This document shows, one piece after another, positions 1 to 64,000 of a stretch of DNA of 64,000 nucleotides (position 1 is the first letter of the stretch; each line of letters opens with the position of its first letter). The position numbers and the translations under genes are program-made. The stretch is from Cyanidioschyzon merolae (Eukaryota), in the NCBI GenBank assembly GCA_000091205.1, contig AP006502.2; one strand, given 5' to 3'. The notes below the pieces were generated by a model that worked only from the letters and a program-made list of their open reading frames with translations, was not told the origin of the DNA and did no database searches.

Positions 1-304
1 TCTCTATATCTGCGGCTATGCGCGTGAATGTTTTCGTGTAGCCAACTCGATGCAAACGCTCCAAGCCTTGGGCTTTGTGCGCCGCTCGCCTCCATCACAA
101 GCCCACACCTTCCACAGTCGCATCTCGCGCTAGAAAGCCCGAAACTTCATGAAAGGACTACGGTCGCGCTTCGTCGTCTGTACCGTGACGTGCGCTTGCG
201 CATCTGCGGCTCGCCATGTATGGGTTTTTTCGATGACAAAACGTTTAGATTGACCATGGATCCCAGAATTCGGGATGGATAATGGCTTTCGGGCAGAGCC
301 TCCA

Positions 305-510
305 AGATGAAGCACCTACCTTCAAGCTCCATTACCCATACCTCCTCTCGGATATACTGGTCGCTTCGTATGTTCTATAGTGCACCGAGTGCCTGTTTTG
401 AGCACCCGCCTTGACGCTTATACCGCTAAAGCAGATGCCGCACGGAGACAGAACGGCTTTGCCATACCACTGAGGGCGTCGGCTCGAGCGGAGGCGCCAT
501 GTACGTGTGC
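305..510. repeat. dispersed ~200-bp repeat, copy 1 (homologous to 11805-11975)
   Basis: Direct nucleotide alignment with copy 2. The shared blocks are …cccatacctcctctcggatatactggtcgcttcgtatgttctatagtg… and …gacagaacggctttgccataccactgagggcgtcggctcgagcggaggcgcc…. Confidence 0.7.
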
Positions 511-569: not shown

Positions 570-1742
570 TCATGATCCACGCTTCTCCCGCTCGCTTCTG
601 CTGACGTTGCCTCTGGTCGACGTTTCCGTCGACGCGTTCAGGGGCCATTTGGTAAGGCGCATCGTACGCGAGGGCAGTACCCGAACGAGCTCCGCCCGAC
701 GCTTCATGCCCGCTGGGATCGCTAACGCTCGCTCTTCAATATCTCGCGTTACCAGTTCAATCAATTCATGTTTCTTTGGCTTCTTGCCGCCTATGACTTT
801 GCCCAGACGTAACGCTCTTCGCTCTGCACGACATTGTTGTATAAGCTGGTCCATTTCTTTCATCCGCTCAGCGATGAGCGCCTGACGAAACGCTCTCTCT
901 CTTTCCCATTTGTGGCCTTTGCGAAGGTAACGGAGATACATCTCCGCACCAATTTCCTCTAAAGTAGCGACAGATACCGTTTTCGTTCGCGATGACGGCT
1001 CCGACTTCGCCAGCGACTCGGTGTGGATCACGACTCCAAGTTTCTTCCGCGGGATGTCGAAGGGCCACGGAACGCCGCGAAGTAGACACTGACGCCGCAG
1101 GTATGCTCGCTGTCTCGCGGTGACTTTTGGCGGACGCCAGACAACCCGGGTGTTGCTCGTTAGGGCGTCAGTCAGACCACCGACTCGCAACGAGTCCGGC
1201 TGCGCAGAATCGTCCAGCAACCGAGCTTGACGCCATAGCGCTTCCCGCTCTGTCAGTGGTCGTTCTATCACCTGAGGAAGCATACCCGGCGGCAAGCGCT
1301 TTTTTGCCGCCTCAACCGCTTTCACGTTCACTGGCAGCAGTCGGCGGCTGGCATGCGGATGACTCGCAGGCAGCGTTGTGAGCGCAAACAGCTTCCCTGC
1401 AACAACGTCCGCACTGCCGGGCTCCTTCACACCGGCAGCACTTGAGCGTGCTCTCCGGACCAGCAGTCCCCAGACTCGCCCCACGCCTCCCAACATGAAA
1501 CTGACGGCGACTCGCGAGAGTCTGGCGTGGTTTAAGCAGCTGATAGAGAGGCGGAGCGCTGCTTGCTGTAGAGGCGACGCCCGGTGCGCTCGACGGTCGC
1601 AGGGCGACGCATCCATTATACGCGGCTGGGATAGCGGCTTTGGAACGCTGAGATACGTTGACGTTGCAGTTGCGACGACACCTTGAGCCTCATCCTGGCA
1701 CGATGTGTAACGTTCTCTTGTTATGAAGAGAGGTCCGAGCAT
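570..1742 (-). CDS. hypothetical basic protein (possibly an organellar ribosomal-type protein); true start probably an internal ATG
   Basis: 390-aa ORF on the minus strand. Lys/Arg-rich C-terminal half (…LRYLRKGHKWERERAFRQALIAERMKEMDQLIQQ…). It is divergent from the YbeY gene and the two ORFs overlap at their 5' ends, so the listed start is suspect. No firm family match is recognised. Confidence 0.4.
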   Translation of the reverse strand: MLGPLFITRERYTSCQDEAQGVVATATSTYLSVPKPLSQPRIMDASPCDRRAHRASPLQQAALRLSISCLNHARLSRVAVSFMLGGVGRVWGLLVRRARSSAAGVKEPGSADVVAGKLFALTTLPASHPHASRRLLPVNVKAVEAAKKRLPPGMLPQVIERPLTEREALWRQARLLDDSAQPDSLRVGGLTDALTSNTRVVWRPPKVTARQRAYLRRQCLLRGVPWPFDIPRKKLGVVIHTESLAKSEPSSRTKTVSVATLEEIGAEMYLRYLRKGHKWERERAFRQALIAERMKEMDQLIQQCRAERRALRLGKVIGGKKPKKHELIELVTRDIEERALAIPAGMKRRAELVRVLPSRTMRLTKWPLNASTETSTRGNVSRSEREKRGS

Positions 1743-2700
1743 GTTCGTTGGAGCCGTTTTCGGACCGGCGCCGTGTCGTGTCGGTGGACGGTGCAGCTGG
1801 AGTCCGCGATTTAGCCGGGAAGCACAGGAAGTGCAGTTCCCGTGTAGTTTTTCGTCTGGAGTAGCAAAGTGTAGTCCAAACTCATCGTATTACTCAAAAA
1901 CGGCTGAAAAAAGTGCACTTTGGAGGAATGACGCACAGCAACGTGCTTTTGCACGCTGTCTCGCGGACGCCGAACATCGCAGCATCGCTCCTAGGGTGCG
2001 GCGCCAAGCGCGGAGGCCGCGGTTACGAGTGCTGGCGTCGCCCTCGGAGGACCTCTCTCTGGCGCCTGCTGCACTGGAAAGCGTCTTGTCCTGGTGTCGA
2101 AGGGACGCGCGGGATGCCCTACGGGCGGCACTCGCGGTCACGCTGCCGTCGCTGGCGCCGCTATCAGCGAAGGCGGCAACAGCGTGCCCGCAAACGCCGG
2201 AGTTGCACCAGGGACAAAGGCAAGCACTGAGCAGCGGTGTAGTAGGCTCGACTCAGGATTCTTTAGATTCCGAAAGACGCTTCATAGCGCCATTGGAGAA
2301 GGTTTTTATGCAGGAACCAGTCCCGTCGCAAATTGAGTTATCGATTTACCTCTGCACCGACGCGCACATCCAGCTCTTGAACAAGCACTATCGCTCCGTG
2401 GACGCACCGACAGATGTGCTGAGCTTTCCGCAACAACAACTCCGGATACTTGGCGATGTTGTGATTTCGTTAGACACTGCGCAACGGCAGGCGGGCGGAC
2501 GCTTGCGCGATGAGCTACGAACCCTGCTGCTTCATGGCATTCTGCACTTACTGGGATTCGATCACGAAATCGATGAACAGCATCATATCCTTTTTGCGCG
2601 AGCAGAGGAACGGATCACGCAAATGCTCGAGTGGCGTGGCAGGGGCCTCATTGCGATGATCAGCGAACGCGACGACCACGAATCGCACGACGGCCCCTGA
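1723..2700 (+). CDS. ybeY: YbeY-family endoribonuclease (UPF0054) with N-terminal extension, probably organelle-targeted
   Basis: The C-terminal ~150 aa carry the YbeY signature: …VLSFPQQ…, the H3xH5xH zinc motif HGILHLLGFDH, and EIDEQHHILFARAEERI. The ATG at 1723 was checked; the alternative ATG at 1741 avoids overlap with the divergent gene. Confidence 0.75.
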   Translation: MKRGPSMFVGAVFGPAPCRVGGRCSWSPRFSREAQEVQFPCSFSSGVAKCSPNSSYYSKTAEKSALWRNDAQQRAFARCLADAEHRSIAPRVRRQARRPRLRVLASPSEDLSLAPAALESVLSWCRRDARDALRAALAVTLPSLAPLSAKAATACPQTPELHQGQRQALSSGVVGSTQDSLDSERRFIAPLEKVFMQEPVPSQIELSIYLCTDAHIQLLNKHYRSVDAPTDVLSFPQQQLRILGDVVISLDTAQRQAGGRLRDELRTLLLHGILHLLGFDHEIDEQHHILFARAEERITQMLEWRGRGLIAMISERDDHESHDGP

Positions 2701-2720
2701 TGATGATGATGATGATGATG
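2698..2720. repeat. (TGA/ATG)7 trinucleotide microsatellite immediately after the YbeY stop codon
   Basis: The sequence tgatgatgatgatgatgatgatg is seen directly. Confidence 0.9.
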
Positions 2721-3666
2721 AAGGAAGCGCTGATCAACGTTGCGGTTAGAGACGCTACAGACGACGATGCACGCTGGCTACGGACTGGTAACGCCAGCGT
2801 ACAAGGATATGGAGAAGGTGGCCGGTAGCGTCGAGTTGATGCAAAGATCGAATTTACGGCACCGGTTACCAAGCTGCAGACAGAACTCATCCGGTCGACA
2901 GGCGCCCGCTGTGTGGACGCCTGCTCGGCTGTGGCGAGGCCGTCGTTTCGCCTTACGACGTTCGCTGCATTCTCAGCGCGGGGATTTTCGCTCAAGTTAT
3001 CCGGACTCGGTTCTGTTGGAGCATCCTGCACTCGGACTAGAACATGGCTGCGTTCGTGAAAGCAGCGTGAGGTTGCAGGGCCCCGCGACCCGCTGACCTT
3101 CGCGCATCCGACCGACGTTGGTCATATCAGGCGATGTTGCACCCCGCAACTTGTTTCGGGGTAGTGTCGGGAAACACTTGACGCCGGCATGCCCAGCACT
3201 GTTGCATGCGATTCGGGTCGGGATGCGAGGAGAGCTCTTGTGGCGACTTATCCAGTAATCGCAACAGACCGGATCATTTAGGCCATATAAACGTAATGAT
3301 GACGTCGACCGTTGCACAGGGTCATCTGCTCGGGCCTGGATCATGTCGCTCTGCATCGGCAGAATTTCTGCCTCGATCCGCACAACCGATCCAGAGGTAT
3401 CTGCACCGCGGTACTGCGTCCTCGATGGATTGCCCCGTGGGCTGCGTCGACCTGAGCGCTCGTCCTCCGAGGCGTTTGCAGATTACAGGACATATCAAGC
3501 GATACGCATTTGTGCAGTTCACGTTCGTGGGACGAGAACGCAGGCACTGTATGTACAGACAGATGCACACAAAGCGTATCGCTCCCGTTATGGTACCTGG
3601 AATGATGCGGTGCCTGACAGAGCCCAGGCCCGCAAAGATCGAAATCGCTGTGCGGACGTTATTTTT

Positions 3667-3687
3667 CATCATCATCATCATCATCAT
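3667..3687. repeat. (CAT)7 microsatellite, reverse complement of the (ATG)7 tract ~950 bp upstream
   Basis: The sequence catcatcatcatcatcatcat is seen directly. It gives poly-H or poly-M runs in the spurious ORFs that overlap it. Confidence 0.9.
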
Positions 3688-3885
3688 CAATGCGGCATGC
3701 GTCACGTCGCTGCCCCGGATCTGCGAGCACGCCATCCCCGAATCCACCAGCTTCTTCTGGGTGCGAGACCCCGATTCTACTGCTTACGCAATGCGGAGCA
3801 TTCACGCCTATCAAATCGCCATCGCCGCCGCGATCAACAGGAGAAGTGCTGCTCCTGTCCCTCCGGTGTGCTAAGCGCGATGAAC

Positions 3886-5652
3886 TCAGCCATTAGCATC
3901 CTGTTCAATGCGAAGCGCTACCATCGCCTGGTTTGCTTCTGTGTCTCCCGTCGATTGCAGCAATCGGCGTCGCTTGCGGTAGTACCAGAGCCCGAACCAG
4001 AGCGCAACACTTGTGACCAGGAGTGGAACCATAATGAACAAAAGGACATTTGCGTGCTTCCGTATAAAGATGCCTATACTGCCGAAGAGCGTCGTTTCGC
4101 TGCGGTGTCCGCTTGGCGCGGATGATCGAGGTTCGTCTTGATCGCTTGTTGACCCGGAGCCCGTCGGGTGTGTGGTCGTGAAAGGGATGCATCCGCGAGC
4201 CGACTGAAACCCTATCCGTTTGTGTGCTCGATCATACACAGTGAAAAAGTTGCGCAGCCACACGAGACCTAATATCGCTTCGACACCATAGCTGGGCCCG
4301 AGGGACGGCTCCTCCGCGATCCCCATGCAGTAAAATGTTGGTTCTGGTGGATTATCTACCCGAACGAAATACTGTAGCGGAGTCAGCGTCAAGTTCCCAG
4401 CGCCAGCTAGCGTGAATGTTAGGTTGGGAAACTGTCGGACTTCCTCTGGAGAATACGATGCGCACGCAGCGTGATCCAGTATACTCGGTTCTTGGGCATT
4501 ATCCGGACACACATACGGAATATGGCAGTAGTGCGCACGAAGGTAGTCTCGGAACGCCGCAAACGCTCCTGTTGAAAGGGCGATGAGCGTCGTGCCCGAG
4601 TCCACGAATGCGCTGTGCCGATTGGCAATGCCCGCATCGTGTCCATCGATATACACATGCTCTAGCTCTATATCATAAAAAAGATGGTGCACAATTGGCG
4701 TCCACCGGATCTCCATCGGATCCATACGAGAATCCATAGCGCCAAGTACAAGACGCCCTTGCTCGTCGCTCACACAGAGACTGAACACATCTTCAGGGAC
4801 GAGTCGGTGCTGCAAGAGCGTTTCGAAAAACGGTAGCGTGCACAGCGGGTTGCATGACAGCCCCGGATACGCCAGGCCGAGCATCCCTTCAATGCCGCTG
4901 CCGAATACATCGGGACTGCGTCCCTGCGCTGACTCGATACCACCGAATACCATGGGCGCCGCACGGCCCGCTGCACCGACCATTCCCGCAACATAGCGGC
5001 CGTTGAAAGCAGTACCGTCCCCGTAACGGATCTGATAGATGCAATGTCCACGTCCGTCACAGATACCATGCTGATCAGGTTCACAGGAAAAGGTCTCGGG
5101 CGGATCGCCCAGCGGCGCTGTGCGGCTTCCGCAGTGCAGCGTGCGATCCTCGTCGACTTGCAGCCGCCGCTTGCCCGCCGGGCAAGCATCGCACACGCTC
5201 GTGATAACTGCTAACGAGGACGAGCCGGTATCCACTGAAAGGGTGTACGGGGATCCATCAATTTCGATTGTTGTTGCATACATACCGATGTGTACGAGTG
5301 AGCCATAGAGAGGCAGTTCTATTGGCGAGATCTGGGCATGGAGGGCGGCGTTCCCGTTGGGTTCTAGTGCAAGCGGCCGCGACTTGCTGATCGGGACACG
5401 ATAACTGCTGTTCCGTAATTGAAACAACGTTCGCACGTGCATGTGTTGAGCATGAGTAGAAGCACTCTGTCCGCGGATCGTATCCCAGGTCAAAGCTCGT
5501 CGCTGTACGCGTTTCAGCGCGCACACGCGCTTTATGCGGTAAGCGCCTATGCTGCCGATCAGGGCCCCGAGGAAAAACAGCGTTAGCACGAACCCCAGCC
5601 ATGCTGCGCTTGTTCGAATCGTTCGACGCCGCAACTCAGAAGCTCTGTGCAT
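3886..5652 (-). CDS. membrane-anchored pepsin-like (A1 family) aspartic protease
   Basis: Both catalytic motifs are present: LSVDTGSSSLAV and AFVDSGTTLIAL. There is an N-terminal hydrophobic anchor (LGFVLTLFFLGALIGSIGAY) and a C-terminal TM segment (VLLFIMVPLLVTSVALWFGLWYY). The ORF is open up to 5994 but begins with GTG; in-frame ATGs lie at 5799 and 5652 (checked as cat on the + strand). Confidence 0.8.
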   Translation of the reverse strand: MHRASELRRRTIRTSAAWLGFVLTLFFLGALIGSIGAYRIKRVCALKRVQRRALTWDTIRGQSASTHAQHMHVRTLFQLRNSSYRVPISKSRPLALEPNGNAALHAQISPIELPLYGSLVHIGMYATTIEIDGSPYTLSVDTGSSSLAVITSVCDACPAGKRRLQVDEDRTLHCGSRTAPLGDPPETFSCEPDQHGICDGRGHCIYQIRYGDGTAFNGRYVAGMVGAAGRAAPMVFGGIESAQGRSPDVFGSGIEGMLGLAYPGLSCNPLCTLPFFETLLQHRLVPEDVFSLCVSDEQGRLVLGAMDSRMDPMEIRWTPIVHHLFYDIELEHVYIDGHDAGIANRHSAFVDSGTTLIALSTGAFAAFRDYLRAHYCHIPYVCPDNAQEPSILDHAACASYSPEEVRQFPNLTFTLAGAGNLTLTPLQYFVRVDNPPEPTFYCMGIAEEPSLGPSYGVEAILGLVWLRNFFTVYDRAHKRIGFQSARGCIPFTTTHPTGSGSTSDQDEPRSSAPSGHRSETTLFGSIGIFIRKHANVLLFIMVPLLVTSVALWFGLWYYRKRRRLLQSTGDTEANQAMVALRIEQDANG

Positions 5653-6504
5653 CGAAAGAAAAAAAGTGCGGCACGAGTGCGAGGTCCCTCGACACACTCC
5701 ACTCTGGTGTTTCGTGCGGCCTGCGTCTGGACGCTGTACGCCACACTGCACTCGATTTGTGCGCTGCGCGATGGGTACAACGCGAGTCCCTGAGAACATG
5801 TAGATCTCTAGACAAATTTGGAAATAGCCCTTGGACGACACAAATCGATGCGTGCGTGCGTTCTGATGGCAAGCACGCTTACCAACGGGACTTACACTTG
5901 CCACGTGCAGGTAGCCAGAAAGATGGGAGTGGCATTTCGGGGCGGATAAACGCCTGCACTCGACCACTAGTCTTTTCGTTGTTAGCGACTGCACTCGCCT
6001 AGCTGAATGACTGTGATTGGTCTCATCGACCGTTCACCAGAAAACTTGCAAGCAGCTGCAGACAACAGGCGGCACCCTGCGTACTTGCACCGAGCGACAG
6101 CATCGCTGGATCGAGGTCGCTTCGCTTTATGAGAACAAAACTGCTCCGGATCTGGTGCAGCATAGAAATGCATCTAGAGGAACGGCAATCTCCGTCCTTG
6201 TTCCTATTCGCATATGCGGATGGAGGAAAATCTGGGTCGATGCATCGGCTTTTCATCATACGAGAGCGTCGACGCATGCCTATGAATAAACTGTCTCCCT
6301 AGAGACCGTCTCTGCATTCGGCGTGGATACGCATGCAGCACAAGCCCAACGAGTAACGGATATTTACGATGCCCATGCAGTATCCGCGGTTTTCCAGCTT
6401 CACCGCTCGCCCCCCGGACGCAAGCACTAGCGTTGGTCACGTTCAGGCACGCATGATGCAGAGCGAGTAGCGCGTGTACTGAACTGCCATATATCCATCG
6501 TTGT

Positions 6505-9387
6505 TCAATACGTGCAATTGCGTCTGCAACGATGCACACAATCCGCGATCCATTGGGTAAAGTCGCGAGCTTCCAGTAAGGTTTCAATGAAATATGGCAT
6601 GCGCCATCGCCAGCTGCCCTCTTCATAACTGCGACCTGGATAATTGATTTGATCCTTCCGGGGATCAGCGCTTCGGAGAGAACGCCAACAATCCGTGTAG
6701 TCCTGCAGCGGGAGAATAGTCCACATCGATCCCGCGCCGAGATGCTGCTCCACAATCTTCTGACTCATCCATTCGGTGCAGTCCCAGGGCGGGGAACCGC
6801 CCTGTTCACCAAAGAATGACCAAAACATTTCGTGCGCTCGACCCCGATCCTCTTGCCACCACGCGCGCACCGTACTGCAATCGTGGCAGCTTGTCGAAGC
6901 TACGGTAAGGTACGTGTAGGCAGCTGGGGCGCCAAACTTGCCGATACCAGGCCAGCGTTGGATACGCAGGCCCAATATCCCGAGCTCTTCGAGAACCGCA
7001 TAGACCTCGGGTGGCACCATGCCGAGGTCCTCGGCGCAAATCATCATATTCGCCGAGGACTGGAGCGCGCGCAGGTTTCGCAGCCCACACGCACGCCAGT
7101 TCTGCCGGCGAAAGAAGTACTGCTCCCAGACTTGATCTAGGAGTTCCTTGTTCGCAAAGCGCTGATACGACGGCGTCGATTTCATATGGCAGGTCGGAAA
7201 GAAGGCATCGGGACCGGCACCATCGTCGTGAATGAGACACTGGTTCGCTATCAGCGACTGAAGAACTCGAAAGGTGCGCAAACGTGCCTGCTGCTCCGCA
7301 GCCGGTAGCGCGTGCCAAGCGGTGCGATCCTCGCCCGCGATGAGCAGATAGCGCGCGATGGCATCGTCCGTAGCGAGGTGCTTTTTGAAGGTCAACACAT
7401 GGCCGCCTTCGTGTACATCGAAGAACGTGTCCACGATCCGCTGCGATTCGGCGCCGAAACGCTCATCGATCAACCAGCGACGCAGATGCGGTGTGCACAA
7501 GCGGTAATATTCCGAGAGGATCGACCTGATCTCGTGCCGGTGTATGGGACTGGATGGTTCAAAACGCCCCAAGAGCCCCGAATAATTGTGACACGGAATG
7601 GACCAGGCTCGAAACAGACCGAGCACGTGGTCGATACGGAAAGCCTGAAAATACTGTGACATGTGTTGCAGGCGCTGGCGCCACCATCGGTAACCATCAC
7701 GCTCCATCTCATCCCAACGATACACTGGAAAGTCCCAGTTCTGCGCGGATGACATATCGAGCGCTGGAGCTCCGATCGAGCGATCCATACGGAAATACTC
7801 CGGATGTTGCCAGGTGTCCGCCGAGTCCCGAGTTACACCGATCGGAAGATCGCCCTTAAGGATAACTCCACGCATCTTGGCGTAGTCCGAGACACTTTTG
7901 AGTTGAAGATGCAGGTGATACTGAATGAAATAAATCAGCTGGACGCGATCATATGCAGGCGAAGACGGACTGGTCAGCGCAGCCACGAGGGACTGGTCGT
8001 TGCCGCGCTCGGGCCACTTATCGGACGGGAGCCGCTTCATGCCTCCAGCGGGTGCGTGCTTCTCCCGAAGAACCTTGTAGAGCGCATACGAGGTCAACCA
8101 GCTAGTGTTTTCTTTGAACCATACGTCAAAGTCTGGGTTCTGTAAACAGGCGCTACCACCGCTGGATTCATAAACCATCTCGAGAAAACGTAACTTCATT
8201 TCCAATACCTCCGGATACGCCACCTCATAATTCGCGTTCAGGCGTTCTCCATCTTTCACCAGCTCTTGCTGTAGCTTTGCCCTATTCGCAGGGCTGATCG
8301 TCGTCATCGCATCCAGAAGCCACTTCAGGTTCATATAAATCGGATGTATCGCGTGGACAGAAAGTGCCGAGTAAGGCGAAGGCTCCTCGCCGGTATCATG
8401 AATTGGCAGAAGCTGTACAAGTTTCAGGGACGCAGCAGCAACCCAGTCGATGAAGAGCTTCAGGTCGCCGAAATCACCTGCGCCTGCGGAATGACGCGAG
8501 CGCAACGAGATCAGCGGGATCGCGACACCCGCGCCCTTCCACACGGTCGCGTACCGGAAAACGTCATCGACATGAATGAAGCGCGTTTCCGGACAACGCT
8601 GCGGTATTCGAAGCGTGCGATTCGAGCCCTGCTCAGCGCAGATCAAGTTCGGTGGCTCCTGATCTTTCGCGATCACGTAACGGTATTCAAAGGGAATCGC
8701 TGCAACCGGAATCGAGACCATGCTTGCGTAGAGACACGAGCCGATCGGGAACATGGGAATCTGTTTCATGGGATTCCAGGCGCCGAGCGCTTCGGGAGAT
8801 CCCGTCACAAACACCTGATGACCAGCTTCCAAACGAGGTACATAGGACACGAAGCGAACTCGAATGACCGCTTGCGTAGACGTCGGTTCCTGGTGTGCCC
8901 AGCGCATGCGTGCCGCCGCTGCAGTATCCAGTTGCAACCAGGAAGTCGTTTTGGGCACGTTCAACTTTCGAAAAATCACATCCACAAAAGCAGAAGTTGC
9001 AAATACGGAGCTTTGTGCGACACGCCAAGAGTCGTAACAGTAGAGGTGTACGACGCCGGTGCCGGCCTGCTGGAACAGCGTCTCGTCAACGAGCACAGAG
9101 CGAATCGCCTGCGTCGCCTCCATGCGTTGCGAGTCCGCCGCTCCACTTCCAGATACGACAACGTACTTATAGTCGATGCTCACGGGCGTAGAAGCATCCT
9201 CAAGCACCAGGTCACGATCTCGGTCGAAGCACACGGAAGCGTGCCAGTTTCCCTCACCGATCGGATGCAGTGGCAGAGCTCGCGACACATCGCCTCCACC
9301 GAGTAGAGGGTGCGATCCAACAGCAACCAGGTATGCGTCCCCTCTTGTGACGTAGTTTATATGCAGATGAAGCTCTAAGCCCGGCAT
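6505..9387 (-). CDS. DPE2: 4-alpha-glucanotransferase (GH77, DPE2-like disproportionating enzyme) with N-terminal CBM20 starch-binding modules
   Basis: 960-aa ORF whose ATG was verified. Conserved GH77 blocks are present (YSALSVHAIHPIYMNL, DLPIGVTRDSADTW, RIDHVLGLFRAWSIP, MMICAEDLGMVPPEV). The N-terminal Trp-rich repeats are typical of CBM20. Confidence 0.9.
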   Translation of the reverse strand: MPGLELHLHINYVTRGDAYLVAVGSHPLLGGGDVSRALPLHPIGEGNWHASVCFDRDRDLVLEDASTPVSIDYKYVVVSGSGAADSQRMEATQAIRSVLVDETLFQQAGTGVVHLYCYDSWRVAQSSVFATSAFVDVIFRKLNVPKTTSWLQLDTAAAARMRWAHQEPTSTQAVIRVRFVSYVPRLEAGHQVFVTGSPEALGAWNPMKQIPMFPIGSCLYASMVSIPVAAIPFEYRYVIAKDQEPPNLICAEQGSNRTLRIPQRCPETRFIHVDDVFRYATVWKGAGVAIPLISLRSRHSAGAGDFGDLKLFIDWVAAASLKLVQLLPIHDTGEEPSPYSALSVHAIHPIYMNLKWLLDAMTTISPANRAKLQQELVKDGERLNANYEVAYPEVLEMKLRFLEMVYESSGGSACLQNPDFDVWFKENTSWLTSYALYKVLREKHAPAGGMKRLPSDKWPERGNDQSLVAALTSPSSPAYDRVQLIYFIQYHLHLQLKSVSDYAKMRGVILKGDLPIGVTRDSADTWQHPEYFRMDRSIGAPALDMSSAQNWDFPVYRWDEMERDGYRWWRQRLQHMSQYFQAFRIDHVLGLFRAWSIPCHNYSGLLGRFEPSSPIHRHEIRSILSEYYRLCTPHLRRWLIDERFGAESQRIVDTFFDVHEGGHVLTFKKHLATDDAIARYLLIAGEDRTAWHALPAAEQQARLRTFRVLQSLIANQCLIHDDGAGPDAFFPTCHMKSTPSYQRFANKELLDQVWEQYFFRRQNWRACGLRNLRALQSSANMMICAEDLGMVPPEVYAVLEELGILGLRIQRWPGIGKFGAPAAYTYLTVASTSCHDCSTVRAWWQEDRGRAHEMFWSFFGEQGGSPPWDCTEWMSQKIVEQHLGAGSMWTILPLQDYTDCWRSLRSADPRKDQINYPGRSYEEGSWRWRMPYFIETLLEARDFTQWIADCVHRCRRNCTY

Positions 9388-11804: not shown

Positions 11805-11975
11805 ATCCATCAAACACCCTGCCTCCAAGTTATATGACCCATACTTCTTCTCGGATATTCTGGTCGTTTCATACGTCCTATCGTGTGTGCCTAGTGCCTG
11901 CCGAAGGCGACAGAACGGCTTTTCTGTACCACACAGAGGGCGTCGGCTCAAGGGGCAGCACCGATGCATGCGCGC
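11805..11975. repeat. dispersed ~200-bp repeat, copy 2 (about a 40-bp deletion relative to copy 1), ~150 bp upstream of the CCT-alpha ATG
   Basis: The shared blocks here read …cccatacttcttctcggatattctggtcgtttcatacgtcctatcgtg… and …gacagaacggcttttctgtaccacacagagggcgtcggctcaaggggcagcacc…. It is in the same orientation as copy 1. Confidence 0.7.
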
Positions 11976-24130: not shown

Positions 24131-24660
24131 CTACATCCGAGGTCGGTGCGCGGATCGACCCATGCCTCGCTCCGCTTCCATTTCATTCATCGATTCTGCG
24201 ATTACGACGATAGCGTGTATGTCGATAAACCGACCTGCAGACGCTTCGCAACCTGTTTTGACCGGTTGCATGGTATCGATTTCAGCTTCTCCTCGTAGAC
24301 TTCGACCCGGAGAGGCTGCCCCATGAAGTTTGCTCGCGCCATCTCCGCAGGTGTCGTCCTCTGCTCCGTAAAACGTCTGATATTTATTGCAGCATTGACG
24401 TCTCGATTCACGAACTCCATGCGTTTTTTTGCATCTGGTCGAACTCACCTATGCAAGGATAGCGGAAACTCGCGCCACCTGTCTCGTCTTCGTCCTGATG
24501 ACGACGTACTTTTCTCACCTATGTTTGCTCTTCTTCTTAGATCCATGGTCGGCGAGAAGAGGATTATTTCCGTTACTTCTTCCAGCCGACGACACCGAGC
24601 CTCCAGACTCCTCTACCTAGATGTCCATCACTTTCCTGTTTTAATTCCAAAACGAACCCA
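24131..24660 (-). mobile_element. 5'-truncated fragment A of a Fanzor/TnpB-like (RuvC-fold, OMEGA-family) transposon-encoded nuclease gene. It keeps RuvC-III and the C-terminal tail.
   Basis: The minus-strand ORF 24202..24420 encodes KKRMEFVNRDVNAAINIRRFTEQ…NFMGQPLRVEVYEEKL. The nucleotide block tgatatttattgcagcattgacgtctcgattcacgaa (24377-24413) aligns with the copies at 34781-34817 and 60888-60924. Upstream homology runs to about 24650, then is lost. Confidence 0.6.
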
Positions 24661-26394
24661 CGTGGAGCGCTTCTGTTATAAACCGCTAAAAAGCACTTGA
24701 ATACGCTCACATGTGGGTTGAAACACAAACGAACGTAAAATCTATCATTTGCTCTGACTTCAACGCAAAAACATCGTGTACGTTCGAGCAGTACGCTAAT
24801 GAACAGGATCGTGTTTCCCCGCGACGGCGAGATGCACGTCCTCTCTCATGCCTGCCAGATATGGAGGTGCGCGTATCGAGTGCGCTATATAGAAAAAAGA
24901 ACAGAAACGAACCAGTAATTAGCACGAAATATCGATTTCTTTCCTCCTCAGAGCCAAGCGTTAAACGGGGAAAATTGTCCATGTTGCCAAGAGTTTATCT
25001 TATAGGCGGCAAGTCCCGCGACCTGGACGCTTCTGTCGGGCCGGTGATTCATGCTCCCACCAGTGGCGGGTGCAGTGGCGAGATCTGCGCAGCTCGTCCG
25101 CAACGCCGTTTATTCGGGGATTAGGGGCAGATCGGCAGCGTCTGCGCATCGCCCTGGTCGCTGTGGACTCCTAGTATGTCGTTTCGGGTTACTGCAGACA
25201 GTAGGTCTGTCTGCGAAGCTGACAGGCTCCCAGCATGAGGATGGACGCCAACTCCACGTCAGGTGAAGCATTCCGCGATCCGACACCCTCAGTGGTGAGG
25301 CGAAGCCGTTCCATCCCCGTGTGATGCATCCGCATCAGCGGTTGAGACGTTGCGGCGGGTGCCTCACACAGGTACTCGGCGCACGATAGAACGTACCATA
25401 CGACCAGTGCATCCGAAAGGAAGCATCCATGATGGAACATGGAGCTAGAGTGAAGAGCATTGAGCGTTATCATTTATTTCCATGCATATCCCGCGACCTG
25501 GGATCTCCATCGTCGACGCATGCGTTTTTCCAACGGAACATCGATTCGCAGCATCTATGTGGACTTTGCTATCCATAAATCAACAACTATGGGCAGCATC
25601 GAGAGCCGCCCCCGTGGACGCGCAGCGGTGCGTCAGCGTCGTCGTCACCGAAATCAGCGGAGGATCCAGCGCGGCTCCGCCCAGATACATCCCCCGAAAC
25701 CTGCCAGGGACGCGTCGATCCTGAGCACCAGTGCCTCTTCAGGGCGCGTTGCTATCTGGTAGACGTCGGTGCCAGTTCGCACGAGCCTTCTGGAAGCACG
25801 CTTATCCGTACACCGAATATACGGGAAGCCGGTGGCGGATGTATACGCGCTTCTTCCTGTGTGGCAACAGGCTTCACTGACACACGGGCGCTGTGTGGAA
25901 CGAGGATCAACAGCGGCGGCGGCAGGGTGTGTGACTAGCGCACCGCTGCCAGCAGCAGCTTTTCCTGCAGCCGCTCGGCAGTGGGGTCCTAATTGGGGTA
26001 TCGCTAAGCAGCGCTTTCCAGGAATCTCTGAATCGACGATCATATTTCTGTCGCTCCCGAACGTTCGCGAAGCAACCCGAGCACGTAGCGGCCGCAACGA
26101 GCGCAGAAGCGCAAGCGGCAGCTTTTTGACAGATTTCGGGACCTCTGCGTCGGTTGTGCGCCGTACATAGGTCGTCATTAAGTATTACGTGTGACAGAAA
26201 AGTCAACTTTAGAGGTGAAAAACCTCCAAACGACACAGACACACACAGACAGACGTCGAAGCACTGTTAAGACTGGTGTCTTCACTTGGCGGACTGGGCT
26301 CCCGAGTGAAACATCGGGTAACAGCCAATTTTTCACGGACACAAGTGCACGACACTCTTAACCGCTGCGACTTGGACCAGTGTTGCGACCGTAA

Positions 26395-34579: not shown

Positions 34580-35012
34580 ACACGTCAACAGAAGGATAAA
34601 TGTTTCAAAACCATGACGAGTAAATCTATATACCCATGCGCTGACGCCTCCCGGAACTTTTTGACCAGCCGCCTGCTATCGGTCTCAGTTTCTCCTTGGA
34701 CACTTCGAGACTTCGAGGCTGTCCGAGAACGTTCACCTGCGTCAGCTCCGCGGGTCTTTTCATGAGCTCGGCACATCGTCTGATATTGATGGCGGCATTA
34801 AGGTCTCGGTTCGAAAAGCCCATGCGCCTATCGCCTCTGCTTGAAGTCACCCAGGCAGGGATTCCCAGAACTCGTGCCCGCCGTTCCATTTGATGCTCTG
34901 TCAGCGCTCCCTGCTTTTCTATCGCCGAAACGCTTCGCTGCCTTTTCTCCATATCGACCTTCTGAAATCTACATCTCAGCTCATCCCTTAATTTCTCTTA
35001 AATGAACGCACT
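34580..35012 (-). mobile_element. 5'-truncated fragment B of the same Fanzor/TnpB-like element family (RuvC-III plus tail)
   Basis: The minus ORF 34626..34952 encodes DELRCRFQKVDMEKRQRS…LTEHQMERRARVLG…RMGFSNRDLNAAINIRRCAEL…NVLGQPRSLEVSKEKL. This is colinear with copy C (HELGCTLQRVEMEKCQRS…LTEERMERRAKFRG…RMEFRNRDFNAAINIR). The nucleotide block 34781-34817 matches A and C. Homology ends at an in-frame TAA near 35010. Confidence 0.6.
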
Positions 35013-60508: not shown

Positions 60509-60739
60509 TTTCGCTGCAGACAGCGGAATCCAGTTGCACAGGTCGCTCACGAGCAGAGGGACCCTGTTCGTGAGGAATGGCGCGCCCAAGTGCCGGCGCC
60601 CGAGCAGACGCTGACGAGGCGGTGATCCCAGCGGCTTTGCCAGCTGGCACCAGCAACAAGAAACGCCTTTCAAAAGAAAAACGTTGTCGTCGGTGGTGTA
60701 CAGTAGTGGCGACCAGCGCCCTAGACAAGAAGTCTCTAA

Positions 60740-62900
60740 CTAACGTGCAGACGCCTCCCTCTCTTTTTGGACCGGCCACCTACTGCTACTTCCAATTTTT
60801 TCTCATATGATTCAACCTTAAGAGGTTGGCCCACAAAATTCTCTATTGTCACCTCCGGAGGTCTCTGATCCATCACCGCGCATCACCTAATGTTGATTGC
60901 GGCGTTAAAATCTCGGTTTCGAAACTCCATCCGTTTCTTTCCATTGATTGTACTTACTAATGCAAGCAGTCCTCGAAATTTTGCTCTCCTTTCCATTCGC
61001 TCTTCTGTCAGCGGTCCGTACTTTGCTCTGTTCTCAGGGCTCCTCTGGCACTTTTCCATCTCCACTCTCTGAAGTGTACACCCCAGCTCATGGTAGGTAT
61101 ACAACGTTCGAAACTCATCTACAGGTATCGTAGCGAAACGCCGTGCACACTCCTTGTACGCTCTCGTCGTTGGAGCTGGCGTGGTCGCTTTCTTGGGCGC
61201 CTAGCGCCCTGCTCCGTATGCCACTACGAGCCTCTGACTTTCATTCTACTCGAGGGCGCTCAACTGGCTGAAAAAGATCGCGAATGCATGCTGCTTCCCA
61301 CAGTATAGATGCATTCGCAGAGGAGCCCACCGGGACTTTGTATACTCTTTCCGCAGCGCCTCCCAATATGCAACACGAACTTTCATGAATTTCCGAAAAG
61401 CTTCAAATTCCGCTCCTCGGCTAGTCACCTCGCTCAAAAATTCCAGGTGCTCTTTCAATCCTGCATTCCACGTCTCAATTTTCTTCCTTGCGTTTATCAT
61501 ACCGGATTCTCGATAGTATCTCGCTCTCGAGAATCTCAACAGACGCATGTCCTTCTGACGTAAGTTGCCGTCGTTACCATCTTCCCCACGCTTCGGTGCT
61601 GTGATGGTGATGATATTTGTGTGGCCGGGGTCCGCGCCAACGATAAAATCGTTCTCATGCACTTTCTGCATCGCAGGATTCGCCTCCTTCTCATCTTCAT
61701 GCTTCGTCACGGCCGCAGCCGAAGGCGGAACTGGACGATCTGCCTGCAACCGCCGATAGTGAACACACTTGGATACTTCATTAGTTTCGATCACCCCCAG
61801 TAAATACCTTTTGTTTGCTGATTTTGAGACGTTTGAAATCGAAGATATTCCCCCAGTACGTCTCCCGGTTTTCGCCGGAGAATTCCCCCCTGCTAACACT
61901 GAACTCGGGACTGATCTCCTTCATGATGCCAGGAAGGACGCCGGAGTCGATAGTCACGAAATGTGACTTGATATTGCACAACGAAACCACGTTGAAGCGC
62001 TTCCCCATTAGGACAGCCTTCCGTCTCTCCCACTCTTCATTTGTCTCTTCACTCAACTTCATTTCCGCCTTGCGTTCGAGCTCTCGGTCCAGAAACACGA
62101 AATAGCGCAGGACGAGGCAATAGTATCTTTCCTTCTCTTTTTTCAACGCTAATATCTTGTCTGTTGGATTTGCCAGCCCCAGTACGGCACGGTGCTCTCG
62201 TATAACCGCACGGATTAGAGAAGCTTCATTCGTGCTCCTGCGTGATGTCTTCTCTCCGACGAATTCGATCTGATCTTCATGCTTGCGATCGTTCGTGATG
62301 CCATTGATAATCGCCCATTTTCCATTGCGAGAGATGCTCGGGTAGAGCGCAAACACGGCGCGTATCATGAAACGTTCGAGGTTTACGATCAGATGGTTCT
62401 TAGGGTTCGCGGGGTACTTTTTTTACACCGTATTCGTAAATGCGCCAGTCACTCCTGTATCGAGCACAGCTGAAGGGTATTCAACCTAACTTTCGTGGAG
62501 GCGTGCACGAGGTCATTCCTCCTTGACGTTTCCCCTGTGTCAAACATCAGGTGACGAATAGAGGTCCTGGTGAAAAATTCTTCCCGATCTTCGACTCTTT
62601 TGAGGTCTGTTACGTCTTCGTACAGCTCTTTCTCCAAATGCATCAGTCCTGAGGAAGCGTTACAGACGCTGCTGGAGTACGTCTCGATACGGTTTCTGAT
62701 GGCCTCTTGCAACTTTAGCTCGTACGCCTCTTTGGTATGCTGAGAATGTCTCCTGGGCTTATGCTTCACGCTCTCCCCAGTGGCAGGTGCTTTAGAAAGA
62801 TCTGGGCAGCAACACGTCCGCAACGCAATTCATTCTGCGACTAGGGGCAGTTAACCCGCGTCCGGGCGTCGCTCTAGTCGCAGTGGACTTCTATAACAAC
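60740..62900 (-). mobile_element. near-full-length but pseudogenized Fanzor/TnpB-like (OMEGA-family, RuvC-fold RNA-guided nuclease homologue) gene of a eukaryotic transposon. It spans about 690 codons across at least 3 reading frames and carries 3 in-frame stops in the C-terminal half.
   Basis: RuvC-I is ENDFIVGADPGHTNIITI (ORF 61246..61899). The conserved block RAYKECARRFATIPVDEFRTLYTYHELGC matches the TnpB Y-K-x-x-x-G…V-D-x-x-Y-T-S-x-x-C zinc-finger region. RuvC-III is RMEFRNRDFNAAINIR at 60886-60930, followed by a TGA stop and then a still-conserved tail (ENFVGQPLKVESYEKKL). In-frame TAG stops lie between the blocks (…SALE*NESQRLVVAYGAGR*APKK…). The upstream ORFs 61781..62368 and 62449..62823 are in other frames. 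Confidence 0.65.
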
Positions 62901-64000
62901 GCTTCGCGTTGTTGTGGGCAGTAATTCTATCAGCACAATTTGCTAGTTCCTGGAATGATTATGCGCCCGACCCCTTCTCAGATGAAGCATTCCTCGTTCC
63001 GACGCCCTCATTGACACAGTAAAAGCCGTTCTGTCTCCGTGATGCATCTGCACCAGCGGTATAACTGCTACTGCGGGTGCAGCCAGGCAAGCACTCGGCA
63101 CACGAGAGAATACACGAAACAACCAGTACATCCGAAAGAAAGCATAACTAATGGAACCTGGAGGTACGTTGCAGCATGACGGATGATTTTTCCATTCCGA
63201 ATGCCCATCCATGCCGCAATCCGGCATCCACGGTCGATGGAAACGTTCTGTCATCGGAAAACAAAACTCAGCTACAGCGTGTCGGGTACCGGGCATCCCC
63301 GTACGGCCAGCAGCGGGGCTTCCGACGCTGCAGGGGGCGCGATCGTCGTCGCGTTCCCGCGAATCCCCGATGAAAGGCGCGAGGCCACCTCAGCCGCCAA
63401 TTGACATCCAGCGGATGATGCGCGACGGCGGCACTAGGGGATCGTTTCTTGAACATTTTCAAGCCACTGGGCGCCAGCGACGGGAACGCTAGGCGAAGCA
63501 CTCGTAGGCGCTTGTTGAATCGGTGCGTCTTGGGTGAACGGCGCATACTTGCAGGTAATCGGACTGCACAGAGAGCGCAAGACGCTTGGACTCGAGCAGC
63601 AGCATCGAGGCACGTTTCTCCAGCTGTGTCGAAGAACGGGGTTCGACGGGGCGTTTGAGGCTCACTGCTGCACGCCCACTATTTTATTTGATTGCGCTGT
63701 TTCCATAAAAGTTGCTTTTGGCACAGCGTTGGGTGTCGGCGAGCACCAGAAGAGGGCTTTCGTCGAGATAGAAGCGGGGCTATTAGCGAGCTCGTGAAGT
63801 TTGCGCGTTCAGTTCGCGACGCGGGCGACGTTGCCTCGCCATGGTGTCCAACCTTCTACCTGTGCCTGCTCCGAGCCAGGCACACGCACCATCGATGCAT
63901 CTTACTTTAATGGAGCGGTTCTGGCGCGTTTGCTTTCTCGTTCGATGTTTCTTCAACAGCGTAAGAGAGCGAGGATTATACACCACATCGCGGGTACGGC

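Follow-up and report, generated by a model that had tools for sequence, protein, structure and literature searches.

Broken open reading frames (ORFs) crowd the minus strand between positions 60,740 and 62,900 of the window analysed here, a 64,000-nucleotide stretch of the Cyanidioschyzon merolae contig AP006502.2, and the question raised by this locus is what gene, if any, they once formed and how that gene came to lie there. A first-pass annotation had read them as the degenerate gene of a Fanzor/TnpB-like RuvC nuclease in a eukaryotic mobile element. All of the motif peptides quoted in it are present in a three-frame reading of 63000-60600 on the minus strand, and the interpretation is borne out by profile-to-PDB matches, by a fold match and by alignment to the consensus of a known element, CMe-1A. 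Window 63256-60664, minus strand, is almost certainly a single, old and dead insertion of CMe-1A, the Fanzor1-carrying element of C. merolae, in intergenic DNA, and there is no evidence that contradicts this identification. A paper of 2013 had already described the family and reported its host, copy number and Fanzor1 nature; the identification is thus right and the find is not new, contrary to the suggestion of a new family in this lineage.

The published CMe-1A consensus aligned by blastn at positions 1089-3169 with window 62739-60664 (85.8% identity over 2084 columns) and at positions 1-499 with window 63256-62748 (76.6% identity). An alignment at 86% identity over 2.1 kb is hardly spurious, and the locus was identified as a copy of CMe-1A. 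Bao & Jurka 2013 (Mob DNA 4:12; PMC3627910), who defined Fanzor, list CMe-1A as the one Fanzor1 family in C. merolae, with a consensus of 3169 bp (sequence in their supplement) encoding a single-exon 734-aa protein and with a copy number of ∼150, each copy being ∼80% identical to the consensus. According to the same paper the element has no terminal inverted repeats (TIRs), its target-site duplications are not determinable, its 5′ 635 bp share 95% identity with an independent short element, TE-N2_CMe (∼70 copies), some copies still encode intact proteins (PMC3627910), and the class of the carrier transposon is given as "unknown." Before this publication was found, the anatomy of the element had been derived from 71 related loci on hot-spring-type metagenome contigs, giving elements ∼3.16 kb long when complete, with copies ∼80% identical to one another, an abrupt 3′ boundary behind ...GAAAGGCG(TT) and, at the 5′ end, a module of ∼500 bp that is also found by itself. 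The agreement of the published copy number, identity, lack of TIRs and sharing with TE-N2_CMe with this independently derived anatomy supports the assignment to CMe-1A. A search for an inverted repeat joining the two element ends found none. The Fanzor1 gene is accordingly carried by a multicopy mobile element, represented by five fragments in the window, the 71 metagenome loci and the ∼150 published genome copies. The interval given by the first-pass annotation covers the ORF remnant, and the whole element is larger. Its features are as follows:

62748-63256, minus strand: 5′ non-coding module of CMe-1A, consensus 1-499, the part of the element shared with TE-N2_CMe
62739-62748, minus strand: junction of a 589-bp internal deletion; the consensus ends at 62748 and resumes (position 1089) at 62739, with consensus 500-1088 missing
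60721-62739, minus strand: remnant of the Fanzor1 (CMe-1) ORF, codons 62-734 of the consensus protein, 85.8% DNA identity; natural stop at 60723-60721
62427-62502, minus strand: three single-base indels (-1 at ∼62502, -1 at ∼62476, +1 at ∼62427) that move the reading through all three frames, from global alignment to the consensus and three-frame translation
62423-62425, minus strand: premature TAA, common to the orthologous metagenome locus L054
61794-61798, minus strand: +1 insertion in a G run (∼61798), inside the WED motif KVFTG-(L/M/V)IETDGV, restoring the original frame
61603-61647, minus strand: RuvC-I motif FIVGADPGHTNIITI, catalytic Asp codon 61632-61630, aligned with family D375 and SpuFz1 D383
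61246-61248, minus strand: premature TAG, consensus GAG (Glu)
61201-61203, minus strand: premature TAG, consensus TGG (Trp), in the AYGAGRW block
∼61155-61080, minus strand: YKEC...IPVDEF...YTYHELGC peptide
61108-61122, minus strand: VDEFR block with the relocated RuvC-II catalytic Glu, codon 61116-61114, aligned with family E545 and SpuFz1 E541
60886-60918, minus strand: RuvC-III motif NRDFNAAINIR, catalytic Asp codon 60912-60910, aligned with family D585 and the NRD of Fanzor1 structures
60883-60885, minus strand: premature TGA, AGA in the family consensus, CGA and CGT in two other window fragments
60736-60738, minus strand: premature TAG, consensus TGG (Trp), five codons before the natural stop
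60664-60720, minus strand: conserved 3′ non-coding tail of ∼57-59 nt ending ...GAAAGGCG(TT), with short hairpin potential; candidate end of an omegaRNA/fRNA scaffold

Comparison with the consensus revealed how thoroughly the gene has been broken. The 589-bp deletion, which was also seen as a gap against the full-length metagenome element L038, took away the 5′ untranslated region and the start of the ORF, with its ATG (consensus 906) and 61 codons. Global alignment identified four frameshifting single-base indels, at ∼62502 (-1), 62476 (-1), 62427 (+1) and 61798 (+1), as well as a 3-bp in-frame deletion at ∼60945, five premature stops and 284 substitutions over 2072 aligned positions (86.3% identity), 172 of them transitions. 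The reported splitting of the N-terminal part over three frames is reproduced by the indels relative to the published consensus, and the three nonsense codons reported in the C-terminal half were likewise located (TAG 61248-61246, TAG 61203-61201 and TGA 60885-60883). Pseudogenization was thus correctly recognised from a list of lesions that was incomplete, with the lost start codon and two further stops (TAA 62425-62423 and TAG 60738-60736) still to be added. The paralogous fragments at 34984-34626(-) and 24459-24226(-) do carry CGA and CGT at the position of the TGA codon. The derivation of this stop from CGA by CpG transition is not established, as both the published and the metagenome consensus have AGA at this codon, making such a transition only one possibility.

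The same insertion was found in a metagenome contig, L054 (Ga0209012_1002818), where positions 2739-7237 are orthologous to window 64000-59500, with 98.6% identity over all 4.5 kb, the two flanks included, and with all five stops in common. Close relatives of strain 10D are therefore present in the sampled metagenome. The divergence between the window and this contig is 1.76% within the element and 0.85% in the flanks, which fits the neutral drift of a pseudogene that was dead before the strains split.

Could the locus nevertheless be a functional gene, in which programmed frameshifting, read-through, introns or RNA editing bypass the frameshifts and stops so that a Fanzor is still made? All three catalytic codons are intact, and some copies of CMe-1A do encode intact proteins (PMC3627910). 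However, recoding would have to overcome four frameshifting indels, five stops and the 589-bp deletion of the ATG and 61 codons, the element diverges from its orthologue about twice as fast as the flanks, and no splice-like structure flanks the lesions. C. merolae has almost no introns, which also weighs against this explanation. We consider it hardly conceivable and effectively refuted: the window copy is non-functional and drifting neutrally, and its intact catalytic codons are irrelevant to function there.

The nature of the protein that the intact gene encodes was established through its relatives. The frameshift-corrected translation of 692 aa matched 49 proteins, all metagenomic, 46 of them at 55-78% identity and three at ∼33%, for which the only precomputed annotation was PF26935 (DUF8286); no paper on DUF8286 was found in the literature. 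An exhaustive hidden Markov model (HMM) search of 1.84 billion representatives returned 3222 clusters at E ≤ 1e-3, of which 433 reached E ≤ 1e-30, with members typically of 600-650 aa, from which 93 full-length, diverse family members were assembled into a deep alignment. The corrected translation matched the family HMM with E = 7.6e-123 (92 sequences, the close relative P0001 being left out), and the raw, uncorrected ORFs matched it with E = 6.8e-41, 3.7e-20 and 2.7e-5, showing that the reading frames are far beyond chance. Three acidic residues are invariant across the 93 members (P0047 numbering): D375 in G-x-D-P-G, E545 in V-D-E-F-R-T and D585 in N-R-D-x-N-A-A.

Searched against the PDB, the profile of this alignment matched PpFz1 (9cf0, 4.5e-24), SpuFz1 (8gkh, 2.2e-18) and GtFz1 (9cer, 2.3e-14) and no other family, with alignments spanning WED, RuvC-I, RuvC-II and RuvC-III and with matching catalytic residues. 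Family residues D375, E545 and D585 align to D383, E541 and D606 of SpuFz1, which are its metal-binding catalytic residues (PMC10432273), and all three codons are still present in the window copy. The SpuFz1 numbers D383 and E541 were obtained from chain positions 777 and 935 by subtracting a 394-residue offset (maltose-binding protein fusion, implied by the same count), and D606 lies in the NRD block. The family therefore has a D...E...D triad in RuvC whose Glu stands at the relocated (V/I)DE(F/Y)xT[ST] site, a placement characteristic of Fanzors (PMC10530073). P0047, a relative that is 33% identical to the window translation, was modelled instead of the broken window copy; the AlphaFold2 model, built with the 93-sequence alignment, had a mean predicted local distance difference test (pLDDT) score of 93.1 and a predicted template modelling score of 0.91. 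The seven best Foldseek matches of this model in the PDB are all Fanzor1 proteins (SpuFz, PpFz and GtFz; E = 3.7e-19 to 2.9e-14, template modelling (TM) score 0.53-0.66), followed by Cas12 proteins at ∼1e-4. Taken together, the profile-to-PDB matches, the fold match, the correspondence of the triad and the match to the family HMM make the Fanzor1 assignment secure. An earlier AlphaFold model from a 7-sequence alignment was discarded (pLDDT 36.8).

Several results weigh against the identification of a Fanzor1 nuclease and its guide. The profile search proposed in the first-pass annotation had a divided outcome: in contrast to the 93-member profile with its matches to Fanzor1 structures, the Pfam-A and NCBIfam models yielded no significant match when run on the window translation and on six relatives, the only hit being a weak one to Cas12f1-like_TNB (E = 0.23) on the NRDFNAAINIR block of P0001. 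When the PDB was searched with a profile made from the close relatives alone, a shallow alignment, no Fanzor or TnpB was matched either. The C4 zinc ribbon, part of the original definition of the Fanzor/TnpB motif, is absent from the CMe-1/DUF8286 clade. Lastly, RNAalifold, run on the 3′-terminal 100 nt of 27 distinct copies, gave no convincing consensus structure (-0.85 kcal/mol), and covariation in three short hairpins drawn by hand in the tail was no better than in shuffled controls.

The motif of 2013 reads D-X-[TS][TS]-X-X-[C4]-X-RD, with a C4 zinc finger (OrfB_Zn_ribbon) between [TS][TS] and RD (PMC3627910), and SpuFz1, PpFz1 and GtFz1 retain both Cys pairs in the aligned segment of their structures. 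The consensus of the clade in the 93-member alignment, VDEFRTTK........L..V........VRGLLWC.ST.....KFVNRD, has a single Cys; the CMe-1 segment reads TSYTHHELGCTL...KCQR...RGLLALVST, and CMe-1 copies have THHELGC...KC between the DEFRT[ST] block and NRD (window segment 61110-60915). Pfam PF07282 gave no above-threshold match. The proposal that the YKEC...YTYHELGC peptide is the block preceding a TnpB zinc finger thus fails for a clade without the C4 ribbon. As the authors who defined the family themselves list CMe-1 as Fanzor1, the absence is treated here as a lineage-specific loss and not as exclusion from Fanzor1.

An unrelated family, that of Pfam DUF8286, which merely mimics the TnpB/Fanzor blocks, might account for the missing zinc finger, for the want of a significant TnpB or OrfB match to the window translation and its relatives in Pfam-A and NCBIfam, and for DUF8286 as the sole precomputed annotation. 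Set against this are the matches of the deep profile to three solved Fanzor1 proteins from WED to RuvC-III with exact catalytic correspondence, the full-length fold match (TM ∼0.6) and the listing of the same element as Fanzor1 by the authors who defined Fanzors (PMC3627910). The probability of mere mimicry is consequently minute, and the profile and fold matches to Fanzor1 refute it. A bacterial TnpB/IS605-type insertion, acquired by recent horizontal transfer or assembly contamination, is refuted and exceedingly improbable, for although Fanzors descend from TnpB and the RuvC-III block has some weak similarity to the Cas12f1-like TNB model (E = 0.23), the flanking genes are C. merolae nuclear genes, an independent metagenome contig carries the same insertion, three Fanzor1 chains and no TnpB chain of the PDB were matched at E ≤ 10, there is no nearby TnpA gene and the protein has ∼730 aa rather than ∼400 aa.

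With the Fanzor1 nature of CMe-1A retained, a function can be proposed for intact elements. Their single 734-aa ORF encodes a Fanzor1, a eukaryotic homologue of TnpB with WED, REC and RuvC domains and a D...E...D site whose Glu has moved to the VDEF(R)T(S) position. If it acts as its homologues SpuFz1 and the other tested Fanzors do, the intact CMe-1 protein would bind a guide RNA from the 3′ end of the element and cut matching double-stranded DNA. The window copy, which has lost its promoter-proximal region together with the ATG and 61 codons, has no activity.

The candidate source of such a guide is the tail of ∼57-59 nt after the natural stop, the conservation of which ends abruptly at 60664-60662 in a comparison of ∼60 copies. 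The three hand-drawn hairpins could be formed in 77-81% of cells, as compared with 34-63% when the 3′ partners were slid. The folding of the 3′ region suggested in the first-pass annotation yielded neither a convincing consensus structure nor covariation above that of shuffled controls. Scans of the window for Rfam families (gathering thresholds) and for tRNAs gave no match.

It is possible, albeit doubtful, that CMe-1/DUF8286, with its >3000 clusters, forms a distinct, zinc-finger-less Fanzor1 branch whose intact hot-spring members are active, heat- and acid-adapted omegaRNA-guided nucleases, with a guide covering the element's final 60-130 nt and running on into the flank. If true, this would concern relatives such as the 752-aa P0001 and not the window copy. 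The same metagenomes contain contigs (L002, L001 and others), the longest of ∼160 kb, with apparently intact long ORFs of the family, one being P0001 (752 aa), which belongs to a cluster of 22 sequences, and the CMe-1 family may therefore still be active in environmental relatives of Cyanidioschyzon. Just upstream of RuvC-I lies a 75-bp (25-aa) in-frame tandem repeat of variable copy number (L001 7149-7449; window 61711-61633); L001/P0001 has four units and P0011 still more, and the window copy and the published consensus each have a single one.

Besides the copy at 63256-60664, the window contains four further fragments of the family:

24228-25448, minus strand: second CMe-1A copy, internally deleted, retaining consensus 85-951 (25448-24583) and 2862-3093 (24457-24228)
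34626-34984, minus strand: third CMe-1A fragment, reduced to the 3′ part of the ORF (consensus ∼2737-3100); 34984-34640 in the alignment to the published consensus
231-488, plus strand: solo 5′ module, consensus 1-255, 87% identity, TE-N2_CMe-like
11818-11953, plus strand: solo 5′ module, TE-N2_CMe-like

A tblastx search of the ORF region against the window recovered the paralogous fragments at ∼34.6-35.0 kb and 24.2-24.4 kb, as well as a distinct DNA repeat immediately 5′ of the ORF, which recurs at ∼25.0-25.4 kb and 0.3-0.5 kb. This is consistent with the recurrence of the 5′ module at window 231-488(+), 11818-11953(+) and 25448-24583(-). Among the metagenome loci the module lies upstream of Fanzor ORFs in many cases and occurs without an adjacent ORF in many others. 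All four additional CMe-1A/TE-N2_CMe fragments are intergenic, between densely packed intronless genes.

The ends of the element show some further features. A T-rich stretch, TTTTGTTTTC (window 63257-63285), lies just outside the published 5′ end, and several other copies have the same; the element may start a few bases before the consensus start, or there may be a preference for T-rich targets. Near the 5′ end (window ∼63230-63200) is a hairpin-capable sequence, ATCCC-AGATTGC-GGGAT, which in the window copy reads ATGCC...GGCAT, with both arms changed. At the 3′ end (window ∼60690-60662) some copies have CGTTCGA-CTT-TCGAACG, and others CGTTTTTC-TTTT-GAAAGGCG in another register. When Helitron2-type features were examined, short hairpin-capable sequences were found near both ends and no pairing of the asymmetrical terminal inverted repeat (ATIR) type was found. 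A motif, GACAA(AA)CGTTT, also occurs near both ends; together with the end hairpins it could have a bearing on the mechanism of transposition.

The products of six long ORFs in the window match C. merolae 10D proteins (BAM83191-BAM83203) at every residue, among them the 4-alpha-glucanotransferase BAM83193, TCP1-alpha BAM83196 and CMT213C BAM83202, all on the 1,621,617-bp contig of chromosome 20. The window thus belongs to the nuclear genome of this thermoacidophilic red alga. A peptidase-like ORF of 1052 codons follows immediately downstream of the ORF remnant, on the same strand.

As the family was published in the paper that coined Fanzor and the window copy is dead, the locus has little discovery value. 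Its value is for annotation, in that 63256-60664 and the four other fragments of the window are CMe-1A/TE-N2_CMe repeats and not genes. A highly diverged nuclease of TnpB type, missed by the Pfam and NCBIfam models, was here correctly recognised from motifs in the raw sequence alone. Of possible interest to specialists are the clade-wide lack of a canonical zinc ribbon and the intact copies in environmental relatives of a thermoacidophile.

Compared with the CMe-1A consensus, the window copy belongs to the same family and host, has no TIRs, shares its 5′ module with TE-N2_CMe and derives from an ORF of ∼734 aa, and differs in being degraded by the 589-bp deletion, the four frameshifting indels, the five stops and the 3-bp in-frame deletion. 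Among characterised proteins, SpuFz1 of Spizellomyces punctatus (PDB codes 8GKH and 9CEU-9CEZ; Saito et al. 2023) shares the WED, REC and RuvC arrangement, with a profile match of E = 2.2e-18 and a Foldseek match of 3.7e-19 (TM 0.63-0.66), at only ∼15% identity. Both are found in single-ORF, multicopy elements of 2-3 kb with a short conserved tail after the stop (75 nt for SpuFz1 and ∼57-59 nt for CMe-1A), where the omegaRNA of SpuFz1 is demonstrated whereas the 3′ tail of CMe-1A is only a candidate. SpuFz1 has a CCCC zinc finger in its NUC domain and 30-nt inverted repeats, and the CMe-1 clade has neither. The "ghost" elements of SpuFz1 share the 3′ omegaRNA end, in contrast to TE-N2_CMe, which shares the 5′ end.

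PpFz1 of Parasitella parasitica (9CF0-3), the best profile match (4.5e-24), and GtFz1 of Guillardia theta (9CER-T; 2.3e-14) have the same fold and, unlike CMe-1, retain the Cys pairs of the zinc ribbon, at an identity of 13-15%. More distantly, bacterial TnpB (IS200/IS605 and IS607) and Cas12f share the RuvC fold and the NRD..NA..NI block of RuvC-III, consistent with the secondary fold matches to Cas12 proteins at ∼1e-4. No TnpA or other transposase ORF was found near the remnant. CMe-1 differs from TnpB in having no significant TnpB match in Pfam, NCBIfam or the PDB, in being ∼300 aa longer and in carrying its catalytic Glu at the relocated position, as in Fanzors.

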